The notes under the pieces: model-generated | Told to the model about the DNA's origin: nothing | The model's input: only the letters and a program-made list of their open reading frames with translations | The model's database searches: none | Translations under genes and position numbers: made by a program | IMG/VR virus record: IMGVR_UViG_3300046780_000088 | Span: 22,783-86,782 of that record | Direction: 5' to 3' (one strand) | Length of the DNA: 64,000 nt | Source of the DNA: a virus | Part shown: positions 673 through 25,974 of the stretch, one piece after another | Numbering within the stretch: the first letter of the stretch is position 1 | Layout of the letters: each line of letters opens with the position of its first letter

Positions 673-2610
673 TTAAAAATTCTCCGCATGGTAGCGACCA
701 TCAGGGCTAAGTGTGACCCTGCCTGCTTCGATCAGCGCGTATACCGAGCGGTCGAATCGCTTGCGCCGTGCATCAAGCAGCTTCGTGCGCTCTTCACCAT
801 CAGGCACTAGGTTGATCGCATAGTAGCGTTCGCGCCATGCATCGAGTGTTACTCCTTTGCCTTCGTCGCCTAACGTCTGCAATGCCATGTCATCGAATGC
901 TGATAGCGGTTTGATTTTCTTTCGCTCGACAGGAACATAGTCAGGCGGTTTCGGTTTGACGATGCACGATCCAATCGTTTCATCAGGATCAGCATCCGGG
1001 TCCGGTGATTTGCCGAGTCCGATGTATTCAAGATCGTACGAAAATGATTGTCCTGTTTCTCCATCGCGCACCTTGGACACTTCAGCAGTCCGCGCACCAT
1101 CTTCTTCTGTTCGCACTTGCAACTCGAAGTCCGCAGCAGCGCGCAACGAACTGTGACCGCGCGATCCTTTGCTTTCATCCTTGCCGCTATGGTGCACATA
1201 GACGACTGTGCAACCGCACGCATCGCGTATCGCCTTGCCTGCCATCACCATCATGCCCATGTCAATCGAACTATTCTCATCGCCACCCGGCATCATCGCG
1301 TTCAGCGTATCAAGCACGACCAGCACGACACCGTGCAACTCTTCCGACTTTTGCTTCACGTCTTCGACCAGTGCTGCAACGTCTGTTCCTTTCTGATCGC
1401 ACAGGTTCAAGTTCGTTTGCAGGATACGGAAGTTCGGATAGTCATCGGCGGATGTATTGTTGTGACCGACCATGTACGCACGCAAGCGATACGTCAGGTT
1501 GCCTTCGCTTGTGACGTAGATAACACCGCCCGGTTTGATTCGACGCTCGAACCAACGCAGCTTGCCTTCCTTCTGCGCAAGCAGCATCGCAAGGTCCGTT
1601 GCAAGAAACGTCTTCGAGCTACCCGGCTGACCATAGATGACTCCGATGTCGCCAAGCTGCGCAACACCGCGCACCAACCAACGAGGCGGTTGTCGATCAA
1701 GAAACTCCGACAACGTTTGTGACTTGACTACGCGCGGTACACCTTTCCATTCGAACCCTGCTTCGTATGCCCACTTGAAGATCGTGCCAACTGTGACCGG
1801 CTTGCGACCTGTCTTCTTGCGCGCATGGTAGAAGTCTAGCGTCTGTTTCTCGTTGAAGTTCCCCGCTCGACGCGCGAAGTCCAACGCAAGTTGCTCGCCG
1901 ACTTCGTCATGTCCGAACGCATTCCCAATCGCATACGTTATCCGCATCCATGAATCGCGGTCTTCCGCTTTTGCAGGATCAAGAAATTCCAGTGCAGCTT
2001 TCAGCTTTTCGAATGAACCCGGCTTGTTACGATTCCATTGTTCTTCTTCGTCATCGTCGGATTCAACCGTAGCACCTTTCTTTCTCAGCTTGACTTCGAC
2101 TTCTTCATTGATCGGTGCGAACGGTGCATCATCCGCGACATCTGTGATCGCGCGCCCGGTGAAGGTGACGTACTTCTTATCGGTGAAGACATCGATACCG
2201 ATACCATCGCCGATGTCCCTGTTGTCGGGCAGCGAAGATTTTCCACTCACAAACGCATGGACACCGTGACCTGACGGACTCCATTCAACGTACGTCGCCC
2301 CAAGACCTTTGATGATGTCGGCAGCGCGATCCTTCAGCGTCCCTTCAGCATCGGTTGCCTTGTCGAAGTCGTAGACTGTTACGCCGAGTTCAGGCAACAA
2401 AGCTAACCCGATTCCTGTAAAGGATTTCGGGTTTTTATCGAGTCTTTCTTTTGCTACGTCGAACGATACTAACTCAGCACGATCACTCGCATCACCATTC
2501 TCACCGCGTCTTGGTTCACCATTCGTTGCGTAGAACGGTTGCTTTGTAGCGTTATGCAGTAACCATACTGGCAGCTTTTTGAGTTCTGTGAGATTCATTC
2601 TTTCGCCCAA
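673..2610 (-). CDS. Primase-helicase (N-terminal primase-like domain, PriCT-2-like domain, AAA_25/RepA-type helicase)
   Basis: Motifs EWSPSGHGVH and DRDSWMRITYAI, Walker A GQPGSSKT, Walker B VVLDT, HHSGK..RGHSSL.AAAD. Confidence 0.88.
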   Translation of the reverse strand: MGERMNLTELKKLPVWLLHNATKQPFYATNGEPRRGENGDASDRAELVSFDVAKERLDKNPKSFTGIGLALLPELGVTVYDFDKATDAEGTLKDRAADIIKGLGATYVEWSPSGHGVHAFVSGKSSLPDNRDIGDGIGIDVFTDKKYVTFTGRAITDVADDAPFAPINEEVEVKLRKKGATVESDDDEEEQWNRNKPGSFEKLKAALEFLDPAKAEDRDSWMRITYAIGNAFGHDEVGEQLALDFARRAGNFNEKQTLDFYHARKKTGRKPVTVGTIFKWAYEAGFEWKGVPRVVKSQTLSEFLDRQPPRWLVRGVAQLGDIGVIYGQPGSSKTFLATDLAMLLAQKEGKLRWFERRIKPGGVIYVTSEGNLTYRLRAYMVGHNNTSADDYPNFRILQTNLNLCDQKGTDVAALVEDVKQKSEELHGVVLVVLDTLNAMMPGGDENSSIDMGMMVMAGKAIRDACGCTVVYVHHSGKDESKGSRGHSSLRAAADFELQVRTEEDGARTAEVSKVRDGETGQSFSYDLEYIGLGKSPDPDADPDETIGSCIVKPKPPDYVPVERKKIKPLSAFDDMALQTLGDEGKGVTLDAWRERYYAINLVPDGEERTKLLDARRKRFDRSVYALIEAGRVTLSPDGRYHAENF

Positions 2611-2617
2611 AGAGAAA

Positions 2618-2641
2618 CAGAGGGATCAATTGATCCCTCTG
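2618..2641 (-). terminator. Intrinsic terminator-like hairpin between the SSB-like gene and the primase gene
   Basis: Perfect palindrome CAGAGGGATC-AATT-GATCCCTCTG followed by TTTCTCTTT on the minus strand. Confidence 0.6.
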
Positions 2642-2664
2642 GCCTTGCATTATGGACGATGATT

Positions 2665-3477
2665 TTAGAACCGCTCGCTGGCTTTTCCGCTCTTCACGTC
2701 GTCGCCATCGGTTGCTGCCTTGAAGTCTGCCTTTGCCTTGCCGCCCTCGACCGCCGCCTTGAATGCCTTTGCAGCGTGATACAGGACCACAGGTGACGGT
2801 CCCTTGAGACTGATGACCCAACCCTGCCAGCTTCCCTTATCGTTGCTCTCTGGCGTGCTGGTGATCGTATAGATCGTGCTGTACGTCGGTTTTGTGAAGA
2901 AGACCCCATCCGAACCGGCAACCTTCTGCGCATCCATCTTCGAACACCAGTTGCGCGACTTCTTGACCTGAGTGCTTGACAGGTTGATCAGTGCCGGTGC
3001 GAAGCTGCCGTCATCTTCCAAGACCAAGACGTAATGCAGGCGCGTATCCTTCAGTTGATCGCTCGAACCATCAACGATCAGCTTACCTTCATCATCCGGC
3101 TTCGTGTTCTGCACGACCGGATCATCAGGTTGATATTCGCCCCTGAATCCGCCACCTTCTTTACGATCTGCCCAACGCAAGAAGCGCCGTTCGTAGTGAG
3201 CCGGGATCACGTCAACGGATTCGTAGAACTTTCCAGTGACGGTGTTGAACAGCATCCCTTGCTTCGCGCCTTCTACATACGCGCCGTCATCCTCATCGAC
3301 TTGCGGCGAACCCTTTTGCAGCATGATCAGGAACGGCATCGCATACGAATCTTTGTCAGCGTGTTCCAGACCAGCACCCTTGTCTTGCGCATACAGCGCG
3401 AGCAGTTCAGCATCAACTGCGCCAACCGCCGTGCTTTCCTTCACTACTACTTCTGTACCACTGGATTTCTTTGCCAT
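2665..3477 (-). CDS. Conserved phage replication-module protein, putative ssDNA-binding protein
   Basis: PFLIMLQKGSPQV..GAKQGMLFNTVTG and NDKGSWQGW motifs, C-terminal F, adjacent to the primase. Confidence 0.6.
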   Translation of the reverse strand: MAKKSSGTEVVVKESTAVGAVDAELLALYAQDKGAGLEHADKDSYAMPFLIMLQKGSPQVDEDDGAYVEGAKQGMLFNTVTGKFYESVDVIPAHYERRFLRWADRKEGGGFRGEYQPDDPVVQNTKPDDEGKLIVDGSSDQLKDTRLHYVLVLEDDGSFAPALINLSSTQVKKSRNWCSKMDAQKVAGSDGVFFTKPTYSTIYTITSTPESNDKGSWQGWVISLKGPSPVVLYHAAKAFKAAVEGGKAKADFKAATDGDDVKSGKASERF

Positions 3478-3491
3478 GATAAGTGTTCCCT

Positions 3492-3995
3492 TTATTTGAT
3501 TACAGCAAGTGTTACGGCTTGAATTGCGAAAACGTCGTACGGAACGTCAACGCCTTTTTCCAATTGCTCTTTGACTAATGCTTTGAGCGTTTGCGGATGC
3601 ACTGTTTCCTTGTCTGCTATCGGGATGTTATTCTCTTCGCAGAACTTCAACAGTTTGTCAGCGGCATCACCTTCGTTCTTGCCGAAGTCAGCCTTGACTT
3701 GATGCTTGATCACTCCCCCCATTTCATGTTCGCGCAACCATGCGAACGCACGGTCTTGCATTTCCGCCGTGATACTGGCGAACACGTCAGGCTTGACTGT
3801 GATCTTCGTTCCATCTTCGAGTGCGATGCTTTGCACCTGTCCCTCACGCATCGCTTCCGGGATGTCAATCTCGATAAGCTTGCGCAAATCGTTGTTAGCT
3901 CGCTTCAGCGCTTCTTCTTTCTCTGCAATTTCATCCTTCTTGTCGCGCGCCAACTGCGCAAGACGAGAAAGAGTTTTCAGTAGGTCTTCGTTCAT
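3492..3995 (-). CDS. Conserved phage replication-module protein
   Basis: N-terminal coiled coil, AFAWLRE and VHPQTLKALVKE motifs, typical synteny with SSB/primase. Confidence 0.65.
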   Translation of the reverse strand: MNEDLLKTLSRLAQLARDKKDEIAEKEEALKRANNDLRKLIEIDIPEAMREGQVQSIALEDGTKITVKPDVFASITAEMQDRAFAWLREHEMGGVIKHQVKADFGKNEGDAADKLLKFCEENNIPIADKETVHPQTLKALVKEQLEKGVDVPYDVFAIQAVTLAVIK

Positions 3996-4369: not shown

Positions 4370-4372
4370 TGC

Positions 4373-4615
4373 TCAGTATCCTTTGCGCACCTTGTTGCGT
4401 TGAACTTTATGATAGATGCTAATAACACCAGCAATGATTGCTGCAACAATAAGGATAGCAACTCCAATAGCAGCACCCAACCAAAATGGCATCGTAACGT
4501 ACCACCAAGACCAATCAATAAATCCTGTGAGCTTCAGCGTTACGAATACGATCCCAAGCAAACCCATTATAAGACCACTGAAATTCGTCGTTGTTTCTCC
4601 GCTCTGCTTATGCAT
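4373..4615 (-). CDS. Small membrane protein
   Basis: LKLTGFIDWSWWYVTMPFW, a common small phage membrane-protein motif, with two hydrophobic segments. Confidence 0.7.
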   Translation of the reverse strand: MHKQSGETTTNFSGLIMGLLGIVFVTLKLTGFIDWSWWYVTMPFWLGAAIGVAILIVAAIIAGVISIYHKVQRNKVRKGY

Positions 4616-7145
4616 GTTCTTCTCTCCTATGTTGACGTGCTGACTTGAACTTCAAACCGCTGTACGGACCACTGGCATACCGATTCTTGTACGACCGTTG
4701 CGTCTTCGTCAAACCATCTGTGAGCTTATCGTTGCGACGATCCTTGCCAACGCCAGTATTGCGCAAGCTTTGACGATGATAGCCGTTTCCTGTTGCTGTC
4801 ATCACGCGCCACATAGCGATCAGAGCATCGTCAATGAATTTCCGCACGCCAGCACGATCAAGATTTCCATTTACAGTTGTCATCGCAGTAATGCTCCTAA
4901 AAGTGTTTCATCGTCATAAACAAACACACAAGAAGGCCAAACCTTCACTTTGATTTTGTCAGGCATGAAGCATGTTGCTGACGGTTCAACGTTTGGTTCA
5001 ACAGGACGAGGGGGAACATGAATCGGCTCCCAAGGGAAATGGAAATTTGTATTGGCATAAACATTTTTAACAACTTCTTTCTCGCCGGTTTCAAGTTCAT
5101 GCACGCGCCGATCAAGCTTGCGGATTGCTCCATCAATCGTGTCGGTTTCCAGAACGCGGTTTGTCGGAGTATTTATCTCGATCAACCTTCTAGCTTCGTG
5201 ATAACCACATTGACATTCGTTTTCGTTAACGGCATGACACCAAGTTTTGTGACCAATAGAGCGGATATAATCAATCGCTGCATTCATTCTACTTTTTCCT
5301 CGCAAATTTGACGGACCTGTTCCAGAATTTCCAACTTGAAACGCTGAAGTCCGCGTGCTTTAACTACAACAGGATCGCCGAGCAACGAACGAATCACATT
5401 GACACTGCGCAAACAATCATTTGTTATCGCTCCATCGCAATGTGATATTTTCCCATCACTAGTTTTGAAATCAAGATTGAACGGCCAACAATGATTGAGG
5501 AATCGTTCTCCATACTCTCCCCATTTGTGACCGTGATCCTTTGCTGTGCCAGTGCGCGACGAAATCGTAACTCCAATAACACCTTCGCGGAACCACGCCT
5601 GAATAAAATCATCGAGCGCCAGCGATAGACGAAACAGGAACGGTTCCCACCAATCTAGGATTCGTTTCTTTCTATCTGTGAGCCAAAAAGAAATTCGCTC
5701 ACAAACTATGCGCGCATTAGTCGTAACCTTTGTTTTGTAAACGCTCTGTTGCGATAGAACGTAACCAATTATTCTCTGTACGCTCTTCTTCAAGTTCTTT
5801 CTCCAATCGTTGAATTTTCTGTTCCTGTGCTTCGACAAATCGAGCAGCAATGAATCCGCCTGTAGCTTGCATTGCTGAGTCTGGTCTTCCGGGCAAATCC
5901 TGCCGTGCCCATTCACGCAAATTCATAGCAACTCTATACGCGGTCGATAGACCCCATTTTTCGCTCACAACTTTAGCTCCCTAATCTTGTAATACAGTTG
6001 CCGTTCACTGATACCAAGCGACTTTGCAGTTGCCGCTCTGTGACCTTCGAACTCGCGCAGTCTACGCTTGATCACCATGTTGTTTATCTGTTCGAGTGTC
6101 GGATACCACGGACCACGCTGCTGTTGCGTGCGCAATTGCTTCATCACATCCAATCTTTTCGAAATCGATTTGTAAGCTTCATTAACCAGCGTATTTGCCA
6201 TTATCGCATCATCCCGTAGAATCGGTCGATTGTCGGCACATCCATCCTTCGAGTTATTTCTGCCTCGTACCAAAATCTTTTATCATGAACCATTTCCATC
6301 GTGCGCGGTGGACAGGTTGCCGCAGTGCTAATTATTCCAACATACCTGTTGTATTCACTTTCTTGTGACTTCATATCTTCCGGCAATGACATCCAAATTT
6401 TCATGGCTTCCCTGACAGTCCGCAATAACCCAACGCTTTACCATCACGACTCTCGCCTGTCTCCCGCCACGACATACACATCGAACCGATGCAATCTGTT
6501 CCTTGCGCCAACGATGCACCTTGCGCCGTGATAACTCGATTCACCGCCAAGAATGCAACAGCACCATTCCGAAGATCGACAGCTTGTGACGTGATACGAG
6601 TGTGTGGGCACCATTTCTTTTTTGCTTCTTCTTCAGTCATTGCCACGCTGCCCGGATTAACTTTCAGTGCGTGCATTCCACCTAACAACGTTTCACTCAT
6701 AGCGTAAACTCCGATGGGTCAACTTCCAAAAGTTCTTTGCGTATGCCAGCAGCGAGTGCTAGATACGCGCCGTTCGGTACTTGATCAAGACATTCGCAAG
6801 CTGCTTCTACACCTTCGCGGTATGCCTCTTCAGCGAGCGCCAAAGCAAATTCTGTGAGTACCGAATCAAGCGCAGCTTCCGCTGTATCGAGTCGTGACGG
6901 AATTGATTCTAAATTTGCTTCGTTCATTTTCCGAACTCATCTGTGAGTTTTGCAAGTTGAACAAATACGCGACCATCAATATCAATTCGATCACGCGCTA
7001 ATTTTAATACCTTTGCAGGAAATTTATAGTCGTTATTTGTGTTCAATAGCACAATCAAATCATCCATCATTACGAGTAATTTTGCGCGCGATCCTAATTC
7101 TTCATCGCTGCCCATCGACTGCGATCCAACTTGGGAAACTGGCAT
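4608..7145 (-). other. Cluster of short, overlapping hypothetical ORFs (4608-4883, 4880-5305, 5284-~5750, 5717-5968, 6201-6425, 6401-6700, 6697-6927, 6924-7145)
   Basis: Tiled minus-strand ORFs, several with 4-bp start/stop overlaps. No recognisable domains. Confidence 0.55.
5965..6201 (-). CDS. Stand-alone Fis/NtrC-type helix-turn-helix protein
   Basis: PTLEQI...LREFEGHRAATAKSLGISERQLYYKIREL. Start taken at ATG 6201. Confidence 0.75.
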   Translation of the reverse strand: MANTLVNEAYKSISKRLDVMKQLRTQQQRGPWYPTLEQINNMVIKRRLREFEGHRAATAKSLGISERQLYYKIRELKL

Positions 7146-7591
7146 AGTATCACCTTATCTGTTTGTGAGTCATATGTATCGATCAATGCGTTTGTGTTCT
7201 GATCCAACTCACTTGCAAACAGAACAGCTTCTTTGGCAGTTGCGCCAAGATGCATTGCTGCCATCGCAAATTTCGATCCTGTTCCAATCGCTGCAAATTC
7301 ATGCTCTACCGGAACAGGAGTCGGGCCATCATCGTACCAATACACGTCTTTCCACTGATTGACGTGAAGTGCTTCGAATTTCTTCGTGCGCTTCCATTCG
7401 AAATCGGCAAGCTTCTCTCCCGCCATGAACCACTGTCTGAACAACCATTCTCCATCAGTGTCACCAGCACATGCCATGCAACCGTGCCCTTTGATCTGAT
7501 AGAGCTTGCGGCAGTATGTCTTGATGTCATCGCCGAGAGTCAACTGTGTATCAGCGGCAAGGATGCGACCGCGCCATGCAATCGTCGTCAT
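7094..7591 (-). CDS. Ntn-hydrolase, HslV/proteasome-beta-like peptidase
   Basis: N-terminal MTTIAW..ILAADTQ (Thr1 nucleophile), AIGTGSKFAMAAM..GATAKEAV. Confidence 0.75.
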   Translation of the reverse strand: MTTIAWRGRILAADTQLTLGDDIKTYCRKLYQIKGHGCMACAGDTDGEWLFRQWFMAGEKLADFEWKRTKKFEALHVNQWKDVYWYDDGPTPVPVEHEFAAIGTGSKFAMAAMHLGATAKEAVLFASELDQNTNALIDTYDSQTDKVILCQFPKLDRSRWAAMKN

Positions 7592-8841
7592 TTGTTACGC
7601 CACGAAATCCAATCGCCCTTTGGATCAACAAGTTTACCCGCTGCTGGTTCGAGAAACACCGGCATCTGGATCGTAATGCCATGCTCCGGGTGTGTGAGCC
7701 ACAGCGCTTGGATCGGCGGTTCATACGCGAAGTTCGACACGTTCGCATATTCATCGTATCCCTTCAGCGATCCATTACCGATGATCGACATCGTCGGGAA
7801 GTAAGTGTGAAAGTGACCGTGTATCAGCGTATCGAATTCCAAACCGATGTTCGAATTGCGCGCAGCTTTCTTCTTCTCTCCGCGCAGCACCGGACCAAAG
7901 TGACCAATCATCCCATCACCGCCGCGAAACTGATCACCGTGTGTGAGCAATATCCGATGCCCAACGACCGAATACAGCGCGTCCGGGCCATCTGGAATGT
8001 AGAACGTAATGCGATCATCGTTCTCGAACGACTGCGCGAGGAATTGATAAAGCAACCAATCGAAGTTTGTGAAGTTGCGATGCTTCGCGCGAGGCTTGCG
8101 AGTAGTGCGCCCATGATTGCCAGCAACACACGCTACGAACACACGACCAAACTCATCCGCCAATTCCTTCAACGCCCAACGCAAGACGCCAAACAGATCG
8201 AGCAACACCGGCATCAGCGGTTGTTCATTCGTTTCTGTGAGTTCTTCGTGGATGTCTCCTGACATCATATCGCCACCAAGATTCACGACGATGCCCGGAA
8301 AGTCCGGTGTCACGACGTGATGGCGCAGCAGATAGATTGTGCGCTCCACCAACTTCTTCGCTCGCTTGTGAGCTATTTCCAAATTGAATTCGTTTACTCC
8401 GTTGATCTGCGCCGGGAAGACAATTTCTCCCCAATGCCAATCAGACCAGAACGCGACAGGAACGCCGGGACGCTTCGTATCCTTTTTGATTGCATCGCCA
8501 GCAATCACCCAATTCGGTGTTGGTGTATCTTCGCATGTCTTCTTCAGATCGAGCAATTTACGCTTGACCCAATCATCGGTGATTGAATTCGCTCGAATGC
8601 TTTTCAGTTGGGTTGTGAGTTCGAAGACCTGATCACGCAACGCATCTTCAGGTGAAATGATTGCTTCTTTTTCGGATGGCCTGATCAGCGTAATCGCTTT
8701 TGCATATCTACCTTTGAACGTCGATGGTTGCACACCTTCTTCGCGTGCTGCCGCTGTTTTGTTACCATCGTGTTTGTTGACTAGAGCAATAACGTGTTTC
8801 GCTTCAGCAACAGTCATCTTTCCAAATTGATTTGCCCCCAT
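7588..8841 (-). CDS. Calcineurin-like metallophosphoesterase with N-terminal HTH
   Basis: SDWHWGE, GGDMMSG, GNHGR, THGD and GHFH motifs. N-terminal GNKTAAAREEGV. Confidence 0.85.
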   Translation of the reverse strand: MGANQFGKMTVAEAKHVIALVNKHDGNKTAAAREEGVQPSTFKGRYAKAITLIRPSEKEAIISPEDALRDQVFELTTQLKSIRANSITDDWVKRKLLDLKKTCEDTPTPNWVIAGDAIKKDTKRPGVPVAFWSDWHWGEIVFPAQINGVNEFNLEIAHKRAKKLVERTIYLLRHHVVTPDFPGIVVNLGGDMMSGDIHEELTETNEQPLMPVLLDLFGVLRWALKELADEFGRVFVACVAGNHGRTTRKPRAKHRNFTNFDWLLYQFLAQSFENDDRITFYIPDGPDALYSVVGHRILLTHGDQFRGGDGMIGHFGPVLRGEKKKAARNSNIGLEFDTLIHGHFHTYFPTMSIIGNGSLKGYDEYANVSNFAYEPPIQALWLTHPEHGITIQMPVFLEPAAGKLVDPKGDWISWRNK

Positions 8842-10155: not shown

Positions 10156-10309
10156 GCTGTCACCTTCGCGTGCAGTTTGTTACGCGCAGCACGTTTCTTA
10201 CGCTTCGCTGCTGCTGCATCTTTTACTGCAACAGCGGTAAGGTTGCGCTTTGTGAGTGCTGAAGTGATCTTCTGATCAAGCAACGCTTTTTCGAGTTCTG
10301 TCTGTGCTG

Positions 10310-10603
10310 TCATTGTGGTGTTCCCGATCCCGGAGCAGTCATCTTGCCGAGTGTATTTTGCGCGAGTTCGTTTGCTGCTTGTTCAGCTTTCGCTTTCGCT
10401 GCTTGAATATCTGCTTCCATTGCAGCGCCAATATATCTACCGACCACTTGCCCCGCCTCATTAGCATACTCCAACGGCATCTTGCCATCCGCTGCAATAC
10501 GCGACAACAGGAGAATACCAGCACGTCCGGTTGTTACGACAAGTTGCAAATTGACCAGCATCTTGTCGTATTCAGGAGTCGGTAACTTTTGTTGTTCAGC
10601 CAT
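10310..10603 (-). CDS. Hypothetical protein
   Basis: ATG 10603 with upstream AAAGGAAA ribosome-binding site. Confidence 0.55.
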   Translation of the reverse strand: MAEQQKLPTPEYDKMLVNLQLVVTTGRAGILLLSRIAADGKMPLEYANEAGQVVGRYIGAAMEADIQAAKAKAEQAANELAQNTLGKMTAPGSGTPQ

Positions 10604-11045
10604 TCTTTTTCCTTTCAGCTTTTCGCTTCTCAAGTGATTCGCCAATTTCGGCAAGCAATTTGTTACGGGCCTTGTCCCACGCTGGCGAAGCAACCTTAAC
10701 CAGTAACGCGAACATGACCAACTTGTCGTATGCTTCGAGCTTTCTTTGGGTTTCATAGATTGCCGCATTCTTTGCGTTGCGCACTGCGCATTCTTGCCGC
10801 CATCTTTCTTCGCGCTCTGCTTGACGGCGAGCTACAGCAGCATCGTTGTGAACACCGCATTTGTCAGACGGAGCAAGAGCATCGTTCTGACATTGCCGAG
10901 TGCGACCCCAATCGCCATACGGAAGTCGTACAACACATTTAGATGACACGTTCTCTCTCCAAGAGAATATTGCGCCAGATTGCAAGATCGGCAGCAGCGA
11001 GGCGATGCTTTTCTTCGCTCTCATCACGCCAACGATTTTCTTCAA
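10596..11045 (-). CDS. Hypothetical protein (start uncertain)
   Basis: Tiled ORF with C-x-..-CGVH motif and coiled coil. Confidence 0.45.
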   Translation of the reverse strand: MKKIVGVMRAKKSIASLLPILQSGAIFSWRENVSSKCVVRLPYGDWGRTRQCQNDALAPSDKCGVHNDAAVARRQAEREERWRQECAVRNAKNAAIYETQRKLEAYDKLVMFALLVKVASPAWDKARNKLLAEIGESLEKRKAERKKNG

Positions 11046-11102
11046 CTTCGTAGTGAGCCACCAACACCTTCAAATCGGCGATGCTCAAGAATGGATTTGT
11101 GT

Positions 11103-11441
11103 TCATGCTTGCACTTCTGCACGAAGCTTTGCTATCACCTTTGCAAGCGCACCTTCACCATAGTCACGGTCGAACAAACCCGAATTGACTTCATCGTTTG
11201 TGATGTCAACTTTCATACAGCGACCGTTGAGATAATCAAAATACAAATTATTCCGTTTTCTTGCAACACCGCCAGCAAAAACATAATCACGGTCGAATTC
11301 CTCACCAAGAATTTTCTTGGCTTCATCTTCAGTCATGTCACCGCGAGTCGCGCGCAAAAATCCCATGCCCATCGGTTGCGCATGGTTGTAAATTGCCGCA
11401 AGCACTTTGTGCTTCGGGAGTCCACTGATGTCAACTTTCAT
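11103..11441 (-). CDS. Conserved viral hypothetical protein
   Basis: VDISGL.KHKVLAAIYN...YFDYLNGRCMKVDI..LFDRDYGEGA. Confidence 0.65.
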   Translation of the reverse strand: MKVDISGLPKHKVLAAIYNHAQPMGMGFLRATRGDMTEDEAKKILGEEFDRDYVFAGGVARKRNNLYFDYLNGRCMKVDITNDEVNSGLFDRDYGEGALAKVIAKLRAEVQA

Positions 11442-11475
11442 TTCTCTTTCCACCTTTCTTATCAAAAATCATTTC

Positions 11476-11549
11476 TGGCGGGACGTAAGGGATTCGAACC
11501 CATATCTGACGGATAGACAATCCGTTGCATCCCGATCTGCCAACGCCCC
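11476..11549 (-). tRNA. tRNA-Asp (GTC)
   Basis: Acceptor GGGGCGT/ACGTCCC, anticodon arm ACGGA-TTGTCTA-TCCGT, TTCGAAT T-loop, encoded CCA. Confidence 0.88.
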
Positions 11550-11627
11550 AAAATAAAATCGCTCGGTACAGGCATCACTGTATCTGGCCCCGAGCTTGCA
11601 TCGTCTTTGTGACGATGGATGCAGCGA

Positions 11628-11702
11628 TGGTAGCGGGTGTGCGATTCGAACGCACGATCTTCAGGTTATGGGCCTGACGAGTTACCACTTCTCCAACCCG
11701 CA
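11628..11702 (-). tRNA. tRNA-Met (CAT), initiator-like
   Basis: Acceptor TGCGGGT/ACCCGCT with unpaired 1:72, anticodon arm TCAGG-CCCATAA-CCTGA, TTCGAAT, ACCA end. Confidence 0.88.
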
Positions 11703-11849
11703 TTCGATTCCTTCGGCGGTTAAATCCCCGGATCGGGGGTCCGCCGTCGCCGACCCAAGACGCTTTAGCGACTCGCGCCGGGGAGTCCATGTGTTGCAAC
11801 ACATTCGCTCCTAAGCTTTCTTCCGGTTCCGCACAGCACAGGTTATGTG

Positions 11850-12170
11850 CTTTCGGTTCTGTTGCCACGCTCACCGGATCGCGCCGCGTATTGTTGGACC
11901 GATTAGGCCGCGATACGCTGGTCGTACATTTCGTCATTCGCAGTTATGCGCTGGCTCAGTTATTACGCGACTGTGCGCGTGTTGTCATCGTCTGCTATCT
12001 CGCCACGTCGAAACCTGTGCGACCCCGCCGCGCGACACTTTGTTACCCGCATATTATTGCGCCCAACATTCACGGATGAACTATGGGAAAATGCCGCTCG
12101 GTGGAGTCGTCGGGAATTGAACCCGAGTCCGCAACGCCTTCACTTCCGAGTCTGCGGTCTTAATCACCGC
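11850..12170 (-). ncRNA. ssrA: Circularly permuted (two-piece) tmRNA; tag peptide ANDEMYDQRIAA*
   Basis: The acceptor piece ends GACTCGGGTTCAATTCCCGACGACTCCACC (to 12100) and precedes the coding piece, which starts GGGGTCGCACAGGTTTCGAC at 12026. Acceptor stem has G3.U70. Tag ORF 11941-11903 follows ATAACT. Outer boundaries are approximate. Confidence 0.9.
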
Positions 12171-12192
12171 CACAACAATTCTTCGAACGACA

Positions 12193-12237
12193 AGGGTTTC
12201 CCCAAGGGTAGACACCAAAACCTGCAAAAAGTTCCGT
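12193..12237 (-). promoter_or_regulatory. ECF (sigmaE/AlgU-type) promoter upstream of the tmRNA-tRNA cluster
   Basis: ACGGAACTT-N15-GTCTACCCTTGGGGAAACCCT; one of three conserved copies. Confidence 0.75.
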
Positions 12238-14261: not shown

Positions 14262-14561
14262 TCATTGTAATGTCTCTCCCCCACGTTGAATGTCTCCTGC
14301 TTGGCACTTCAACAACTCGTACGTTGAATCTTTGCCGACGAAACCCCACTTGATACCAGCGCACCCTTGCTCGGTAGCACGCGCAAATCCAAGCAGGATT
14401 AGTGAGCCACCATTCGTCGCCAGCGTCAATTGATAACCTGACGGCAGTGCAACGAGTGAGCAAAACTTAGCGCGAGGGTCAATCGGTTGCGGCAGCAAAT
14501 CCAGTATGCCTTCTGTTGCATTCTCAATCTCAATCAACCATCCTTCAATCATTTCCTTCAT
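14262..14561 (-). CDS. Hypothetical protein
   Basis: ORF coupled to the helicase stop codon. Confidence 0.45.
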   Translation of the reverse strand: MKEMIEGWLIEIENATEGILDLLPQPIDPRAKFCSLVALPSGYQLTLATNGGSLILLGFARATEQGCAGIKWGFVGKDSTYELLKCQAGDIQRGGETLQ

Positions 14562-16021
14562 TGCATCCGCTCCAAGTGTCGCAACGTTTCAATCGATACA
14601 TCGCTCTTTGATTCCAGCGTGTCCAATATATGCCTGTCAATCGGTGCATCACGGCAGATGATGTCATAGTACGTTACCGACTTCGTCTGACCGCCACGGT
14701 GCGACCTGTCTTCTGATTGAATGCGATCCTCAAGACTGAAATTGTTTGTGAAGTAAATCACATGCGATGCTCGATTCAATGTGATCGACAATCCACCAGC
14801 ATGTTGATTGCCTACGAAGATTCGTTTCTCGCCAGCTTCGAATGCAGCAACGTTTGCTCCCCGTTCATCCTTCTTGGTATCTCCAATGTACGTTACGATG
14901 TTTCCTTCATACATCTTGGCAATTCGCTCTGTGTCTTCTGTGAACCGCGACCAGATGATGATGCTTTCGTCTTCCGGTATATCTTCAATCAGTTCCTTCA
15001 GCGTATCGAATCTGTTAGTCGGTATCGGCGGCAGATCAGGCAGATGCCCGGACAACAATTGCTGCAATCGCATGAAGCTTGTGAGCTTCGATACAGTAGC
15101 AATGCGATTATCCTTCAATACGATCTGCAAATCCTCATCGAGTCGGTGATAGATATTCTTTTGCTCTGGTGTCATCACGCAAAACACACGCTCGAACACC
15201 TTCGGCGGAAGATCGAGGCAATCAACCTTCTTTACATGGTACGAGTATGGAGCGATCAATGCAGCGAGCTTATCAAGGTTCTTGAACTTTGGTCTGCCTG
15301 TCTCTTTGTCACGCGCAAGAATCTGCGGTTGAAACCTGTCGCGCCCTGTTATGTTCTTGACCTGTTTGTGAGACAACAGATCGCAATATTCTGCGGTGAA
15401 AGCATATTTGCTGCATCCAAGAATCGACTCATCCAAGAATGTAAACTGTGAGTACACGTCAACCGGGTTTTGCGTGATCGGAGTGCCGGTCGCTATCCGA
15501 CGAACCTTCGCCAACTTCCCAAGCTTGATCATCCGCTTCGTACGAATTGCTCCTGTTGACTTGATGCGACTTGATTCATCGATAGCAAGATATGAATCGA
15601 CGCACATCAAAACCTTCTTCAACATCGCTTCGCCTTTGGCAGTCTGCACCGCGTCGATGTTCATCAGGAATACGCGCATCCCATCTTTGTGAGCCATGAA
15701 TTCGTCGTACTTCTTCTTCCACTTCTTCGTTTCTGTTTTTCCTGAATGCCACGCCAGAATTTTACCGTTGACATATTCAGGAAACCACTTCGGCAATTCC
15801 ACTTCTTCCCAATTGATGTGAGCAGACATCGGCCCAACAACAACGAGGCATTGAATTTTCCCGTTTCCATATAGCTCGACAGATTCATCAATGACGATCT
15901 TGGTCTTGCCTGTTCCCGGCTCACACAGGAATGCGAAAGCAACTGCACCGCGCGCTTTGTCACGCGCTATCTTCTGATGCCCCCAATCGACGCTCTTTAC
16001 CATAACGGAATTCCATCCCAC
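14558..16021 (-). CDS. SNF2-family (SF2) helicase
   Basis: EPGTGKT, IDESSRIK, TGTPITQ, QSEDRSHRGGQ. Confidence 0.92.
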   Translation of the reverse strand: MGWNSVMVKSVDWGHQKIARDKARGAVAFAFLCEPGTGKTKIVIDESVELYGNGKIQCLVVVGPMSAHINWEEVELPKWFPEYVNGKILAWHSGKTETKKWKKKYDEFMAHKDGMRVFLMNIDAVQTAKGEAMLKKVLMCVDSYLAIDESSRIKSTGAIRTKRMIKLGKLAKVRRIATGTPITQNPVDVYSQFTFLDESILGCSKYAFTAEYCDLLSHKQVKNITGRDRFQPQILARDKETGRPKFKNLDKLAALIAPYSYHVKKVDCLDLPPKVFERVFCVMTPEQKNIYHRLDEDLQIVLKDNRIATVSKLTSFMRLQQLLSGHLPDLPPIPTNRFDTLKELIEDIPEDESIIIWSRFTEDTERIAKMYEGNIVTYIGDTKKDERGANVAAFEAGEKRIFVGNQHAGGLSITLNRASHVIYFTNNFSLEDRIQSEDRSHRGGQTKSVTYYDIICRDAPIDRHILDTLESKSDVSIETLRHLERMQ

Positions 16022-18474: not shown

Positions 18475-18475
18475 G

Positions 18476-21935: not shown

Positions 21936-22841
21936 TCAAACGCTGCCCCGCGCCAGTGCGAACAGTTCGGTTGCCTCATCGCGCATCTGATCTGCTTTTG
22001 TGTGAGCTTCGAAAGCTTCTGTGTATGCTGCTTTCGCATTTCCTACCGTCACCGCGAGCATAGCCTTCGCCGATGCAGTGTCGTACACGAATCCGTATTG
22101 CTTGCGCAACAGGATCGATTCCTCTGCCAGCTTGTGAGCCTTGGTGATCATTTGTTCCGGTGTCAATGCTGCTGGTTGCGCTTGCTGTTCCATTCGTCGC
22201 CCTTTCCAAATGTTGAATATGTCCTGATGCGTTTTTGCAATTCTTCCTTTGCTTGTTTCTCGCGCAACCAATCATCGTACTGTTCGTCATGCGCGCGTTC
22301 CAAATCATCCTCTCGATCACTGGTGCACAACGGACAACGAGGCGTGTGTAGTACGCTCATCAAAAATTCCTTCCGTTTGGATCATACCATTCACGATGTT
22401 TCTTCATCACGTCGCGCAACGATTCGTTGTACAGATTGCGCTCGCCACACAGCTTGCATTTGCGATCAACGAATTGATGCTCGACTCCGGGCATCCGATG
22501 CCCCGGTTTGTAAGAACATAACCAACGAAAGCAGAGAATCATTTGTCACTCGCCGCTTGCGATGCGAGGGCGCGCGACGAGTCAATAGCTTCGTCCATGT
22601 GTTCGCCCCACAGTGACGCGGCATAGCCTGATACGTCAGCGTTTTGCGGGTCACGCAGCCACCGATACCGTTCCGCATCCCGCTCCAACTCCCCGCACCG
22701 CGCGGCCAGTGCGTCGTTGGCGGCGATGCGGCGATAGCAGTCTACGAGAATGGCGTCGATAGCATGACTGCCCGCGCCAATCCGCAGCGCCTCCCGTATC
22801 TCCGCCAGCAGTTCGTCAGGCCCGCTCACTTGGTGGTTCAT
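21936..22841 (-). other. Short hypothetical ORFs (21936-~22193, 22163-22363, 22360-22542, 22539-22841)
   Basis: Tiled ORFs. 22539-22841 has a DAERYRWLR motif common in small phage proteins. Confidence 0.5.
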
Positions 22842-23062
22842 GCGTTGCTCGTATCGCAGGCGTCAAACAACATACCGTCCTCGGCGGCAACAACCTTTCC
22901 CGGCGTCATGGTTCCCTGCCGTTGCTCGTCACTACTGCGGCGCGTGCGGTAGGTAACCGTGATAATTCGCTTCGGGTCGAAGCCAGCGTGGGCAAGGATT
23001 TGTTCGTAAGTTACCTCTTGTCTTGCAACATAAGTCTGCTTGCCGTTTATGTAGATATTCAT
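22838..23062 (-). CDS. Single multi-ubiquitin-type (beta-grasp) domain protein
   Basis: IYINGKQ..V...EVTYEQIL..A....ITVTY.....GTMTPGKVV..EDGMLFD..T pattern of the Multi_ubiq family. Confidence 0.72.
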   Translation of the reverse strand: MNIYINGKQTYVARQEVTYEQILAHAGFDPKRIITVTYRTRRSSDEQRQGTMTPGKVVAAEDGMLFDACDTSNA

Positions 23063-23675
23063 TTGACCTCAATCATGTAGCGGCGGGGGCACCACGGGCC
23101 GGGGCATTGATGCGTCCAGTCCGCGCACTCCCGCTCGCACCGCTTGTTATGTTCCGCGATCACGCCCTCTAGCGCCCGGTTGCGGGTGAGCAGGGATTCG
23201 AGTACAGGTAAGGCGTCGTCCGTCCACTCGATAAGCTCGAAGCGGTCACACACACCTTGGTATCGCTCGATCAAGTCGGCGGCGTCATCCTCCGGCGCGG
23301 CATCGATCCTCGCCAGCAGTTCAGGCCCGCTCACTTGGGCACCTCGATCATGTAGTTGAGCGGATCAGTACATCGCATACCGCCAAATGTGACCGACTCC
23401 CGCTCGCACCGCTTATTGTGTTCCGCGATCACGGTCTCTAGCGCCAATTTCACGCCTAGTAATTTGATGTTGGCGGCTTGCGCGCTATCCCTGTGCTGGC
23501 AGGCCAGCCGTTCGCGCACCAGCAGCTCCATGTTCTTGCCCTCTAGCGCCGTGCAGCGGGTGGAGAGGGATTCGATCATGTCGGCTGCGGCGTTTCGAGA
23601 TACGCCACCATGCGGCACGCGAAGTTCTTTGACTGTTTCCGCTACATCCTCCGGCGCGGCAGGGGCGGTAGTCAT
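23059..23675 (-). other. Two partly paralogous hypothetical ORFs (23059-23334, 23331-23675)
   Basis: Shared ALE.VIAEHNKRCERE..YMIEV.K C-terminus and a 50-bp near-identical repeat. Confidence 0.6.
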
Positions 23676-23941
23676 GATGCGACATACCCGGTGATGCGAT
23701 TGACTTCTTCAACCGCTTCTTTGAGGCTTGATCCCTTGATCGACTCACGATAAAACCGAACCGCAGCAACACGACCTTCGGTGCGCGACAGTTCCTTGAT
23801 ACGCGCCTCGAATGCCGGTCCACGCACGTTGATCACATCCAAGATCACTTGCGGATATTGATCGGCGAGCTTCACCAGCAATTCCAGCGCGTCAATCGAT
23901 CCACTGCCAACTTCGATCATGATCTGATTCAGCGATTTCAT
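23672..23941 (-). CDS. Protein with ribosomal L7/L12 C-terminal-like domain
   Basis: GRVAAVRFYRESIKGSSLKEAVEEVN resembles the K..AIK..R..G.GLKEAK..VE motif. Confidence 0.6.
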   Translation of the reverse strand: MKSLNQIMIEVGSGSIDALELLVKLADQYPQVILDVINVRGPAFEARIKELSRTEGRVAAVRFYRESIKGSSLKEAVEEVNRITGYVAS

Positions 23942-23943
23942 TT

Positions 23944-25578
23944 TTAACCTTTCTTCTTCAATGATTGGACAAGTTCAATCACATCATAGATTGAATTGTA
24001 CGTTGCACCGCCACTCGAATATGAATTCAACCTTTCTGTGAGTGCAAGTCTAACTTCTTCGAGTGCTGCATCGCGTATCCCATCCATGTACTCGAAGACA
24101 TCGCGCGGGATTTCATACGAACGCTGTCCGACCACGACGATCTTTGTGAGTTCGGTTTCATCTGTGATAACAGGATTGTGTGATGCCCAACTCACCTGAT
24201 CAAGTGTATCTTTACTCACGCCCACAGCACGCTCCGGTCGCGGCCAAATGCATCTTCCAACGCGCACAGCGCTTTGAATTTTGTGATCGCGCGCAAGACC
24301 ATCGCCATTACATACGCGCTGCCTTTCAATGCATTGTTATATGCACTGATCAAATGCTGCAACACTTTCGAGCGGTTCATCATTCACCTTTCTTCAAGCG
24401 AGCTACGAAACAGTTCAATGCGCTGATGACATGCGCCTCAAGATAGATTTCGTTTGTTACGTTGATGCCATCTTCGGTTGTGAGCAGAATGCTATCGCTG
24501 CCCTCTTCGTATGCAGCATACACACCATCGCCAAGATATTCTTTCTTCATCGTGACTCGATCACCGCGCGAGCTAAGGCGTCCACCGCGCGTTCAACTGT
24601 GTCGTCGCCTTTCAAGCAAACGTCTTTGAAATGCGTATTGCGCAAATCGTATGCCGAATCAAACACCGAATCAACAAACAACTTCTCACGCTCTGTGAGC
24701 TTGTCGTAATTCTCGTGTATCGCGTGTCTCATCATCAACCTTTCTGTGTTGTGCGCGGTGTGTTCCATATAGCCATGTGCGCCTCGTTCAACTTCTCGAT
24801 CAGCGTCTTGTGCCACGGTGCTGTGATTTGTGGCAAGTTTAACGCCATTGCATCGGCAACATAGTACAGACCGAGCAGTGCATTGTACTCTGCCGGTTTG
24901 ACCCGATCATTCGCGCGTGCAACAACATCGACCTTGAGCTTCGCGTGCGAACCATCGGTATTAACTAACTTGTCTCGCTTCATCTGTGACCTTTCTTATG
25001 AATGGCGGCGACCAGCGACATGCGCTGCACGCGAACCATAGACGACCACAACGAAAGCCGTGCGGCGATCCATACCCGCGACATTTCCAATCATTCTGCT
25101 GTTTCTTTGCCATCGTCTTTCTTTCTCTTTGTGAGCGGGATGAAGTTCGGGCCGTCGCGTTCGTCATCGAACTTCGACTGCTGCCACTGGAACCAACCAT
25201 CAATCCGCTCGATTCGATTCACGTCTTCATAGTTGCGAATCTGCTGAAGTGCCGCGCGACGTTCCACGCCCCTTAGCGACGATCCATTGTAGATAGCGCT
25301 GACCAAGCGATGATAATCGCCCCGGACGCGCGCTGATTCAACAATCGCTTCAATCCTCATTGTCAATTTGCACCTTTCTGTTTGACGCGCGCCGTTCAAT
25401 GCGCGAAAGCTACATCCTCTTCAAGTTCATGCAAGAACATCGGTTCCGATTCTTGGTGTCCCTCGAATCGGACAAAGATACTGTCACCCTGAACATCTGT
25501 GATCACCCCGGACTGCGGGTATGCAGGATGACTCCATACCACATGAAGTCCGACCCGCGCCGTTCTGAGCTTTGTCAT
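23944..25578 (-). other. First genes of the leftward operon: short hypothetical ORFs (23944-24267, 24547-~24768, 24735-24983, 25091-~25360, 25396-25578)
   Basis: Tiled ORFs. The first follows the leftward ECF promoter and RBS GAGAGG. Confidence 0.5.
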
Positions 25579-25604
25579 CGCATCATGCCTCTCTTTTGTG
25601 AGCA

Positions 25605-25648
25605 GGGTTTCCCCAAGGGTAGACACCGAGCGGCGCGGAAAGTTCCGT
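25605..25648 (-). promoter_or_regulatory. ECF (sigmaE-type) promoter, leftward
   Basis: ACGGAACTT-N15-GTCTACCCTTGGGGAAACCCT on the minus strand. Confidence 0.75.
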
Positions 25649-25974
25649 GGCAACCGAAAATAAGGTTTCAGGGATTTTCGGTTGACTCGTTAGAACGGCC
25701 TTGGTTGATCGGCGAGTCGCGGACATGGGAAGATGAGCGCCGACCACCGGGCGATCAATGGCGAGGCTTGTGAGCGGTTTGTTGCGCGTTATATGGCGAG
25801 CGCTACCCAACGAGCGATTGATTGCTCAAAATCGTATAGAACTAATAGTTATAATGACCGCCGAAAAACGAGCGATTGGAATATAGGGTTTTGGCCCGAA
25901 TCGCGGCCAAAAACTAAGTCATTGAATTATATAAGTGTGATAATAGAATCAAAGACGTTTTGGTCCTGACGCTC

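Follow-up and report, generated by a model that had tools for sequence, protein, structure and literature searches.

TGTGAG, a strand-polar word under selection across the genome of an uncultured soil siphophage, and its possible Chi-like role

The closest described systems are the Chi arrays of phages. When phage LLS of E. coli is drawn with its terminase on the left, the top strand has 20 of the 23 Chi sites, with a concentration toward the right end, and the Chi density is 1 per 1.86 kb (PMC12315714); Chi of the Pseudomonas phage MD8 is distributed 32 to 0 between the strands (Zheng et al. 2025, Genome Res, PMC12315714). The Chi-rich class of that study consists of lambdoid phages that have neither a phage recombination module nor Gam (PMC12315714), and only five species have an experimentally known Chi (PMC8022716). 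Other precedents are the 36 EcoP15 sites of T7, which share a single orientation throughout (PMC3874151), the strand-biased depletion of MANTIS sites (bioRxiv 10.64898/2026.09.23.753747) and the T4 endoribonuclease RegB, which acts at GGAG in early mRNAs (PMC1702504).

Here, we analysed the word TGTGAG in an uncultured, siphovirus-like soil phage of 86.8 kb, the whole genome of which carries 82 copies on the + strand and 6 in the opposite orientation by exact count. This siphophage is large, looks lytic and carries Pol III alpha, primase-helicase and nucleotide genes of its own. Its large terminase (TerL) is at best ~30% identical to the TerL of any cultured phage, no terminal repeat was found on the contig, and prophage coat homologues with 52% identity in a Methylobacterium and a Planctomycetaceae MAG yield no host call. 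Coordinates refer to the window, a stretch of 64,000 nucleotides of this genome, unless genome positions are named.

Distribution and polarity of TGTGAG

The features that define the layout of the word are as follows.

32410 to 33849, + strand: TerL gene, which sets the map orientation, with the packaging genes on the + strand
2587 to 25774, + strand: dense array with 52 copies of TGTGAG (in its extended form (T)TGTGAG(Y)), antisense to leftward genes, mean spacing ~450 bp
26001 to 64000, + strand: sparse continuation of the array in rightward packaging, head and tail genes, 9 TGTGAG against 2.4 expected
10257 to 12905, no strand: word-free gap with tRNA-Asp, tRNA-Met, a permuted tmRNA and small ORFs in which no synonymous opportunity exists
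22139 to 24036, no strand: word-free gap that includes a block of 59.8% GC (22500 to 23700)
5677 to 5703, no strand: inverted pair TGTGAGC-N13-GCTCACA, where no gene was called
25606 to 25652, − strand: leftward ECF-type promoter ACGGAAC..GTCTACCCTTGGGGAAACC at the head of the left arm
26121 to 26166, + strand: rightward promoter of the same sequence type at the head of the right arm

A preliminary description of this DNA had reported about 52 copies against about 4 in the opposite orientation between 2587 and 25774, and the exact numbers are 52 and 3 (5698, 5964 and 15920), with a fourth opposite copy at 2246, just outside that interval. The approximate right-arm counts of 8 and 2 became 9 TGTGAG and 2 CTCACA on the + strand (26001 to 64000). 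Most of the remaining layout was also borne out, namely that C or T usually follows the word (45 of the 52 copies in 2587 to 25774), that several reading frames are used (33 copies in frame 0, 14 in frame 1 and 8 in frame 2 of the left-arm called genes), and that the tRNA/tmRNA area and the GC-rich block, the DNA of which is possibly a recent acquisition, lie in gaps with zero copies. The density is about 1 per kb overall and 2.2 per kb in the dense arm, the copies are spaced at random (CV 1.08, with no regularity and a largest gap of 2.7 kb), and the position of the copies inside genes is uniform. The inverted pair supplies one of the six opposite-orientation copies in the genome, and the TGTGAG at 25769 is located upstream of the leftward promoter.

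The same description had placed the array in the left arm only, which holds for the raw count, lower in the right arm, but not for the word family, which is enriched there on the same physical strand. Because TGTGAG in sense calls for Cys-Glu in one frame and brings a TGA stop into another, the restriction to the left arm is largely a coding artefact, and the lower right-arm count mostly reflects coding constraint. The nine right-arm copies were reached by 1 of 500 synonymous shuffles. On the + strand, TGTGA was observed 120 times against 38.5 expected in the left (minus) arm and 53 times against 25.6 in the right (plus) arm, with corresponding values of 58/13.9 and 22/7.2 for TTGTGA and 66/19.9 and 31/10.3 for GTGAG. 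On the opposite strand, TGTGA was below expectation in both arms (14/23.6 in the minus arm and 23/36.2 in the plus arm), CTCAC occurred 5 times in the plus arm against 17 expected, and none of the 136 opportunities for the opposite orientation in right-arm genes was used (5.6 expected; 0/500 shuffles were so low). The ratio of observed to expected TGTGAG per 7-kb bin was 2.5 to 6.5 in every plus-arm bin and 4.1 to 9.8 in the minus arm; since these ratios differ only about two-fold between the arms, the gradient is modest. Per 6-kb bin, 54-67% of the opportunities were realised between genome positions 24 and 48 kb, compared with 22-39% between 0 and 24 kb and 0-19% in the + arm. Thus, (T)TGTGAG(Y) is a DNA-level strand-polar signal of the whole genome, on the strand that runs 5′ to 3′ along the terminase and structural genes.

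These data bear on a reading at the RNA level, in which CUCACA of the leftward transcripts would be the target of a sequence-specific RNA-binding protein, a small-RNA seed or an endoribonuclease, much as GGAG is that of T4 RegB, and late rightward mRNAs would avoid it. We regard this as quite unlikely. The sense-strand counts (55 against 7.4 in leftward genes, 0 against 5.6 in rightward genes) and the absence of the word from the RNA-gene cluster are in line with it, and sense CUCACA was slightly more open in predicted folds than composition-matched hexamers (0.551 vs 0.480, p=0.014), while the other strand of these sites had no accessibility excess in predicted RNA folds (p=0.30). However, the sense strand of the rightward genes is itself enriched for the complementary family (TTGTGA, GTGAG and TGTGA, as above), the copy at 25769 precedes the leftward promoter, and both arms are headed by the same promoter, so that the temporal classes are not obviously different at their starts. 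No ribonuclease family was found among the ORFs scanned. The earlier proposal of an early-mRNA mark is therefore disfavoured, as the word tracks one strand of the DNA rather than the sense of the genes, and the promoter is identical for both arms.

Selection beyond composition and codon usage

In a dinucleotide shuffle of the whole window with the strands pooled, 67 copies compared with 39.2±6.1, and 0/100 shuffles reached 67. The claim that codon usage does not explain the word was upheld by a synonymous-codon shuffle of 72 left-arm genes, a kind of check that had been named beforehand (55 observed vs 7.4±2.5; 0/500 reached this count), and by a codon-order shuffle (55 vs 6.0±2.3; 0/500). CTCACA was the top hexamer outlier of the left arm (z 17.4). 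Synonymous opportunities were realised at 55 of 113 positions in left-arm genes, across three frames, and peptides able to encode the word were themselves in excess (113 vs 91.5±9.3 expected). Of the 12 realised sites in RtcB, the SNF2 helicase and Pol III alpha, 8 encode peptides found in ≤10% of homologues. Two of the genes concerned here and below are as follows.

14558 to 16021, − strand: SNF2-family helicase with 5 TGTGAG copies inside
7588 to 8841, − strand: PHROG 284 (‘exonuclease’) protein, 5/5 TGTGAG opportunities realised, with no sequence match in Pfam, NCBIfam or PDB

That the word is a by-product of codon, dicodon or amino-acid usage and carries no signal at all is extremely improbable. 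One codon pair, CTC ACA, does account for 60% of the genic copies, and the tRNA genes of the phage include tRNA-Thr(UGU) and tRNA-Leu(AAG), but neither shuffle reached the observed count in 500 trials and all three frames are used. Leu-Thr was written CTC ACA in 33 of 58 pairs in left-arm genes, and CTC was followed by ACA 33 times but by ACG once and by ACT once; in the right arm, despite similar ACA usage, 0/82 Leu-Thr pairs were spelled this way.

The word is also sharply bounded. Single-mismatch variants of TGTGAG were mostly not enriched, and T was the next base after a Leu-Thr site in 0/33 realised vs 5/25 unrealised cases; the flanking bases are thus under selection, giving the extended form (T)TGTGAG(Y). 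In the right arm, the first base is not T-specific (observed/expected T 9/2.4 and A 10/2.2, both small counts). Selection on TGTGAG therefore acts at both the synonymous and the amino-acid level, and the initial view of a selected, oriented signal embedded in coding DNA is supported: the enrichment survives the amino-acid- and codon-preserving shuffles, spans three frames, reaches into the flanks and comes with the encodable-peptide excess.

The near absence of the opposite orientation could also be a means of escaping orientation-dependent restriction (Type III, Type ISP or MANTIS-like), in which cleavage takes place only where asymmetric 6-bp sites face each other in inverted arrangement. 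With 6 opposite copies in 86.8 kb and 0/136 opportunities used in right-arm genes, such an escape would follow the precedents of the T7 EcoP15 and MANTIS sites, and the genome is heavily sculpted against restriction elsewhere, 18 of the 29 six-base palindromes tested and CCWGG being at zero copies. Nevertheless, restriction escape covers the depletion only and not the 7.4-fold enrichment, the site-creating amino-acid changes or the selected flanks, and as the whole explanation it is very unlikely; restriction avoidance could be a contributing force. Because many copies on one strand have been kept together with altered proteins, some direction-sensitive reader must exist.

Candidate readers of the word

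The leading explanation, which we hold tentatively, is that TGTGAG is a Chi-like signal. A helicase-nuclease, either a host enzyme of the RecBCD/AddAB type or possibly one encoded by the phage, would enter linear or concatemeric phage DNA at a right-hand end and travel leftward. It would reach the word from its 3′ side first, on the 3′-ended strand, and would there change from degrading the DNA to sparing or recombining it. This model takes the reader to be an end-processing nuclease, assumes a free right-hand end on the phage DNA and supposes that the host uses the word TGTGAG itself.

We favour the Chi-like reading because selection is real (55 vs 7.4±2.5, three frames, encodable-peptide excess), because one physical strand carries the polarity in both arms and because the word is sharply defined, with mostly unenriched mismatch variants and selected flanks. 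It is further favoured because TerL and 82 of 88 copies are on the + strand, as in the geometry of LLS and MD8, because random spacing and uniform genic position fit a signal that may be met anywhere, and because recombinase or Gam families were not found in the 60 ORFs scanned against PHROGs. A Chi-like site, one of the mechanisms proposed at the outset, remains the leading one, and relative to the terminase TGTGAG lies on the same strand as Chi in published Chi-rich phages; a purge of the opposite orientation (0/136 vs 5.6) is, however, not among the predictions of this model. Also against it, the phage has replication machinery and a protein assigned to PHROG 284, a putative exonuclease, and would in this differ from the lambdoid class without recombination modules; the gradient between the arms is modest and the right-arm first base is not T-specific; and the predicted accessibility of sense CUCACA may hint weakly at a reading of the other strand or of RNA. 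A search for conservation, which had been suggested for related phages, found the word in 0 of ~80 partial genomes of distant relatives.

Another, undescribed polar DNA reader is somewhat less probable; the word might orient a double-strand translocase or the packaging motor, or might serve as a ‘self’ mark against a phage nuclease that destroys host DNA. Translocase-orienting words such as the KOPS of FtsK are enriched in the favoured orientation and purged in the opposite one, the pattern found here, and the phage encodes the SNF2 helicase and a ParB-like nuclease-family protein. Still, this is a residual category and its candidate readers have no tie to the word. The same applies to the idea of a loading site for the ParB-like and Fis-like proteins, which was not sustained: nothing ties these proteins to the word, and double-strand binding needs no single orientation.

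A further candidate for a reader is as follows.

673 to 2610, − strand: primase-helicase with PriCT-2 and AAA_25/DnaB-like domains

Some primases of the archaeo-eukaryotic family require a short template word containing GTG, and TGTGAG could be the preferred start site of the phage primase-helicase on the lagging-strand template, with one-way (rolling circle) replication and hence about one site per kb on one strand. We consider this unlikely. It agrees with the PriCT-2 domain and DnaB-like ATPase, with the placement of the word on one strand genome-wide, the dense arm having roughly 1-2 copies per kb, and with a lineage-specific word, as a phage-encoded reader would predict; against it, the sites follow each other at random and irregularly, some 2.7 kb apart, the model leaves the missing opposite orientation unaccounted for, and one arm would necessarily be replicated head-on to its own transcription. 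We know of no phage genomes that have been re-written for priming sites.

More broadly, it is conceivable, although we would not expect it, that the word is not a host Chi and that phage machinery reads it as a polar ‘self’ or priming signal; the PriCT-2 primase-helicase would be one such reader, a helicase-nuclease encoded by an early gene another. The phage would then have recoded about half of the available positions and changed roughly twenty protein positions for a private one-strand code.

If the Chi-like reading is correct, TGTGAG offers a candidate Chi for a soil bacterium not yet in culture, and the use of Chi arrays would reach beyond lambdoid phages to a large phage of lytic type that brings its own replisome. 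A reader encoded by the phage would instead make the word a self-mark of a new kind, spread over the whole genome. In both cases, a short DNA signal shapes the coding sequence of a phage strongly, with half of the synonymous opportunities used and proteins altered, and the precise word, orientation and flanks given here are directly testable in vitro.

Comparison with known systems

Like RegB and GGAG, TGTGAG is a short word present in one transcript set and missing from another (PMC1702504); unlike GGAG, it tracks the DNA strand and lies throughout coding sequence rather than in ribosome-binding sites. With the EcoP15 sites of T7 and the MANTIS sites it shares an asymmetric 6-bp word in one orientation under heavy restriction-avoidance pressure (PMC3874151; bioRxiv 10.64898/2026.09.23.753747), but those are cases of one-strand depletion, whereas the kept orientation of TGTGAG is positively selected, seven-fold and with protein changes. 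Candidate one-strand words of other phages or plasmids (TTGAYAAT, CAGGACTC, CGGGAG, ATAACAG, GGGGTA and AGATCG) differ from TGTGAG in spelling, and their genomes are unrelated.

In comparison with LLS and MD8, the present array is denser (~1 per kb overall and 2.2 per kb in the dense arm vs 1 per 1.86 kb in LLS), its sites are antisense to the genes that carry them, and its word is unrelated to the Chi words named in the reports consulted (PMC12315714, PMC8022716). It resides in a siphophage that is large, looks lytic and encodes Pol III alpha, a primase-helicase and nucleotide genes, whereas the Chi-rich class is described as lambdoid. As in LLS and MD8, however, one orientation of a short asymmetric word is in strong excess, falls on the top strand of a map with rightward terminase genes and rises in density toward the right-hand part of a terminase-left map, and the opposite orientation is rare or absent, with ratios of 20:3 in LLS, 32:0 in MD8 and 82:6 in the TGTGAG phage (PMC12315714).

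Gene map and distribution of the word

The strand-polar enrichment of TGTGAG (the word) claimed in the preliminary description is real and stronger than could be shown there; it extends over the entire genome, on a single DNA strand. The window corresponds to bases 22783-86782 of one 86,782-bp contig, from which a terminal repeat is absent and to which genome coordinates refer. Genes were called with a codon-score gene caller made for this analysis, resulting in a clean map of two arms.

Gene arms of the contig (gene calls)
Genome 48990 to the contig end, then on at genome 12-4010: rightward genes
Genome 48181 down to 5147: leftward genes

Family searches identified a primase-helicase (PriCT-2 and AAA_25), a PHROG-284 'exonuclease', an RNA ligase, an SNF2 helicase, RtcB, a ParB-like protein, a ribonucleotide reductase, a DnaE-type Pol III alpha and an RNase T-like exonuclease in the left arm, and a large terminase, portal, P22-type coat protein and tape-measure protein in the right arm. 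Sequence searches of Pfam, NCBIfam and PDB with the PHROG-284 'exonuclease' gave no match. The public run with most of the phage DNA is a soil metagenome; of the three soil metagenome runs listed, one may be where the window comes from, and the other two contain 17% and 6% of the sampled words. No copy of the word was hit among the 40 of 264 differences listed for variant fragments from the soil runs, and among the runs listed, no RNA run contained phage sequence. The contig also shows extreme palindrome avoidance: of 29 six-base palindromes tested, 18 are missing altogether from its 86.8 kb (including CTGCAG, CAGCTG, GGATCC, GTCGAC, CTCGAG, CCCGGG, TGGCCA and GCCGGC), as are CCAGG and CCTGG (CCWGG), and GATC (514 copies) and GCGC (603 copies) are common.

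Window 2587-25774 contains 52 copies of the word on the + strand and 3 in the opposite orientation, and the right 38 kb contains 9 and 2, so that the earlier counts by eye (about 52 and about 4; about 8 and about 2) were right or nearly exact. The word is followed by C or T in 45 of the 52 copies, and zero copies lie in the tRNA/tmRNA area (10257-12905) or in 22139-24036, which includes the GC-rich block, all as first described. The array runs on leftward past the window with 21 further copies and zero in the opposite orientation, giving 82 against 6 in the whole contig. Two of these six opposite copies lie 91 bp apart (window 63380 and 63471) at the right end of the contig, in a stretch without a confidently called gene that also has two copies of GCTGGTGG, the E. 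coli Chi word. No periodic spacing (CV 1.08) and no preferred position inside genes (flat histogram) were found for the word.

Selection at the codon and protein level

The 72 called left-arm genes contain 55 copies of CTCACA, the complement of the word, on their sense strand. The codon-preserving shuffle suggested in the preliminary description, in which the codons of each amino acid were permuted over every position where it occurs (synonymous shuffle), yielded 7.4±2.5 copies, with 0 of 500 shuffles reaching 55, and a codon-order shuffle of the same genes yielded 6.0±2.3. When every hexamer was compared with the synonymous shuffle, CTCACA was the top outlier (z 17.4); one-base variants of the word were mostly at or below expectation, with partial enrichment of TGTGAC (24 vs 8.7) and TGTGAT (27 vs 15.7). 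Codon usage is ruled out as the cause by both shuffles and the hexamer scan. A mutational origin from CpG-type precursors was also rejected because TGCGAG (3 vs 10.7) and CGTGAG (2 vs 6.1) are too few for 55 sites.

As noted earlier, the word occurs in more than one reading frame (33, 14 and 8 CTCACA in frames 0, 1 and 2). Counting as an opportunity each place where the protein sequence allows the word synonymously, 55 of 113 opportunities in left-arm genes are realised: 33 of 58 for Leu-Thr, 14 of 28 for [SPTA]-His-x and 8 of 27 for x-Ser-[HQ]. While CTC ACA spells those 33 Leu-Thr dipeptides, CTC ACG and CTC ACT are used once each. The flanks of the word are under selection too: on the + strand it is preceded by T, C or G, rarely by A, and followed by C or T, and a codon starting with T follows Leu-Thr at 0 of 33 realised sites versus 5 of 25 unrealised ones. 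Opportunities average about one per 95 aa in the left arm, and two groups of ORFs offer none, namely the Pam3 gp34-like and gp33-like genes (window 2665-3995, 437 aa in all) and, near the RNA genes, a set of five ORFs (window 10310-12826, about 520 aa).

Selection for the word extends to the proteins themselves. Peptides able to encode it number 113, against 91.5±9.3 after residue shuffling, and Leu-Thr occurs 58 times against 45.3, a count reached in 10 of 500 shuffles. When RtcB, the SNF2 helicase and Pol III alpha were each aligned with about 30 homologues, 8 of the 12 realised sites proved to be peptides that no more than 10% of homologues share; at RtcB residue 234, Leu-Thr stands where 22 of 31 homologues have Leu-Glu. 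The nearest RtcB homologue (87% identity) has Leu-Thr at 3 of 3 RtcB sites, which at the peptide level hints that a sister phage keeps the three sites. An avoidance of conserved positions by realised sites, suggested by Pol III alpha, failed over the three proteins (p=0.47).

DNA strand or transcript

A restriction of the signal to the left arm, as originally proposed, is not borne out: the word is enriched on the same physical strand in the right arm too. Because TGTGAG is hard to encode when read as sense (one frame has TGA, one needs Cys-Glu, and the third needs x-Val-[Ser/Arg] with the choice of three codons fixed), the right-arm expectation is just 2.4, against which 9 copies were observed, a small count that 1 of 500 shuffles reached. 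The word spells 4 of the 5 right-arm Cys-Glu pairs. Shorter words of the family gave better statistics and agreement between both arms.

Observed/expected counts of shorter words of the family
TGTGA on +: left arm 120/38.5; right arm 53/25.6, z 5.4
TTGTGA on +: left arm 58/13.9; right arm 22/7.2, z 5.5
GTGAG on +: left arm 66/19.9; right arm 31/10.3, z 6.5
TGTGA on the opposite strand: left arm 14/23.6; right arm 23/36.2
CTCAC on +: right arm 5/17 (compared in the right arm only)

Per 7-kb bin, + strand TGTGAG reaches 2.5-6.5 times expectation in all six right-arm bins and 4.1-9.8 times in the seven left-arm bins. Because the same strand is enriched in both arms, the signal is genome-wide on one physical strand, and the apparent left-arm restriction is mostly coding constraint plus an about two-fold stronger enrichment there. 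In the right arm, where counts are small, the first base is not T-specific (observed/expected: T 9/2.4, A 10/2.2, C 5/2.0, G 5/2.9), but T and A rank above C and G in both arms (left arm: T 55/7.5, A 9/4.4, C 2/6.1, G 0/2.6).

The opposite orientation takes 0 of 136 opportunities in right-arm genes (5.6 expected; 0 of 500 shuffles as low). Orientation-dependent restriction of the Type III or MANTIS kind would account in part for the data, namely for the missing orientation, with precedents in T7 and EcoP15 (Type III, PMC3874151) and in the strand-biased MANTIS system (preprint). It is in keeping with the zero counts of 18 of the 29 palindromes and of CCWGG in this genome, but leaves the seven-fold enrichment of the kept orientation unexplained. 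Alternatively, the word would be a priming site of the PriCT-2 primase-helicase, and rolling-circle replication would also give one-strand, genome-wide placement; priming predicts neither that the opposite orientation is purged nor that the spacing is random (CV 1.08). A sizeable residual probability falls to some other polar reader of the word.

An ECF-type promoter (ACGGAACTTTT..GTCTACCCTTGGGGAAACC) occurs in five copies in the contig.

ECF-type promoters
Window 25606-25652 (leftward) and 26121-26166 (rightward): pair, back to back at the divergence point
Window 12213, - strand: before the permuted tmRNA
Genome 17852, - strand: before the region left of the window
Genome 4197, + strand: before the five-tRNA cluster

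Because one promoter type heads both arms, the arms do not simply divide into early and late where they start, which weakens the earlier proposal that the word marks early mRNAs. The copy of the word at 25769 is located upstream of the leftward promoter. Two observations favour recognition of the word in RNA or on the sense strand: sense CUCACA has a predicted mean unpaired probability of 0.551 versus 0.480 for 300 composition-matched hexamers (p=0.014), compared with 0.310 versus 0.292 on the other strand (p=0.30), and the RNA-gene cluster, whose ORFs offer zero opportunities, lacks the word. These two points are all that was found in favour of a transcript signal, and the accessibility effect is weak.

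Two further features were observed. The tRNA cluster at genome 4368-5008 (+ strand) comprises Ala(TGC), Gly(TCC), Thr(TGT), Leu(AAG) and Ile(GAT); its adjacent tRNA-Thr(UGU) and tRNA-Leu(AAG) decode ACA and CUU (perhaps also CUC), and the codons of CTC ACA, the commonest embedding of the word, are among those read by this pair. Between the divergent promoters (window 25960-26090) lie nine GGACA/TGTCC pentamers, partly forming one long palindrome, which could be iterons of an origin or operators.

Distant relatives and Chi-rich phages

The word is absent as a signal from all of about 80 partial genomes of distant relatives (Pol III alpha at most 49%, RtcB at most 64%, or coat 52% identity) and is therefore specific to a narrow lineage or its host. 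Pol III alpha scans of IMG/VR and JGI metagenomes reached 49% identity at best. Among 57 IMG/VR loci of at least 9 kb, the highest count was 12 CTCACA beside 6 TGTGAG in 22.8 kb (L066), and the word was never among the most strand-asymmetric or most frequent hexamers; in a neighbour-contrast screen of 68 distinct loci of at least 12 kb (IMG/VR and JGI), none of the loci listed had it among the leading hexamers. What looked like polar hexamers in the screened relatives belonged to tandem repeats, with units of 15 nt or 6 nt, or to boxes resembling promoters. Three of the relatives' loci (L130 1-480, L131 2660-3580, L159 3320-3820) carry long arrays of 15-nt tandem repeats, with units such as ..GCGCAGACCTCTGTG.., which look like pentapeptide-repeat coding sequence.

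Among other queries, RtcB matched 10 loci (40-64% identity) and the coat protein matched two prophage-like loci among genome contigs (52% identity), all of them without the word; the Pam3-gp34-like protein had a single match, at 33% identity; and the primase-helicase, as well as the 1157-aa tail protein in a scan of genome contigs, found no match. Cultured phages are all distant (coat protein at most 59% identity, TerL about 30%), with RtcB-level matches only in the DNA search, and an index of other DNA stretches contained none resembling the window. Closer relatives were seen only as proteins: a 2.2-kb JGI contig encodes an RtcB of 87% identity, and Logan contigs encode Pol proteins of 53-57% identity.

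Literature searches for TGTGAG and phage returned primers and operators only, and those for Chi/AddAB in Alphaproteobacteria gave no Chi word for such hosts among the matches listed. In the whole contig, GCTGGTGG occurs 12 times on the + strand, always in the rightward-gene region (in the window, for example, at 40366, 43054, 46675, 54858, 55899, 56712 and 62299-63624), and once on the - strand. Right-arm genes contain 10 copies against 1.8 under the synonymous shuffle (0 of 300 reach this), all spelled GCT GGT GGx (Ala-Gly-Gly). The shorter TGCTGGT also exceeds expectation in both arms on the coding strand (32 vs 6.6 and 20 vs 3.9), so that codon context, rather than a second polar signal, may lie behind this excess.

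By analogy with published Chi-rich phages, we tentatively consider the word a putative Chi-like polar signal, a possibility given somewhat less weight than its negation because a purge of the opposite orientation would not follow from the Chi model, because the phage encodes its own replisome, and because the contig is without a terminal repeat. In the report on these phages (Zheng et al. 2025, PMC12315714), LLS has 23 Chi sites, 20 of them on the top strand with the terminase at the left and concentrated toward the right end; the authors consider Chi to act on RecBCD that enters at this end, which packaging leaves open. In MD8, Pseudomonas Chi-like words number 32 in the LLS orientation and 0 in the other. 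In our contig, 82 of 88 copies are on the top strand of a map oriented by the terminase alone. Per 6-kb bin, 0-19% of opportunities are realised in the structural genes, against 22-39% in genome 0-24 kb and 54-67% in genome 24-48 kb, adjoining the divergence point. On the map so oriented, the array of this phage has the same anatomy as those described for LLS and MD8, and a Chi-like function is therefore ranked first.
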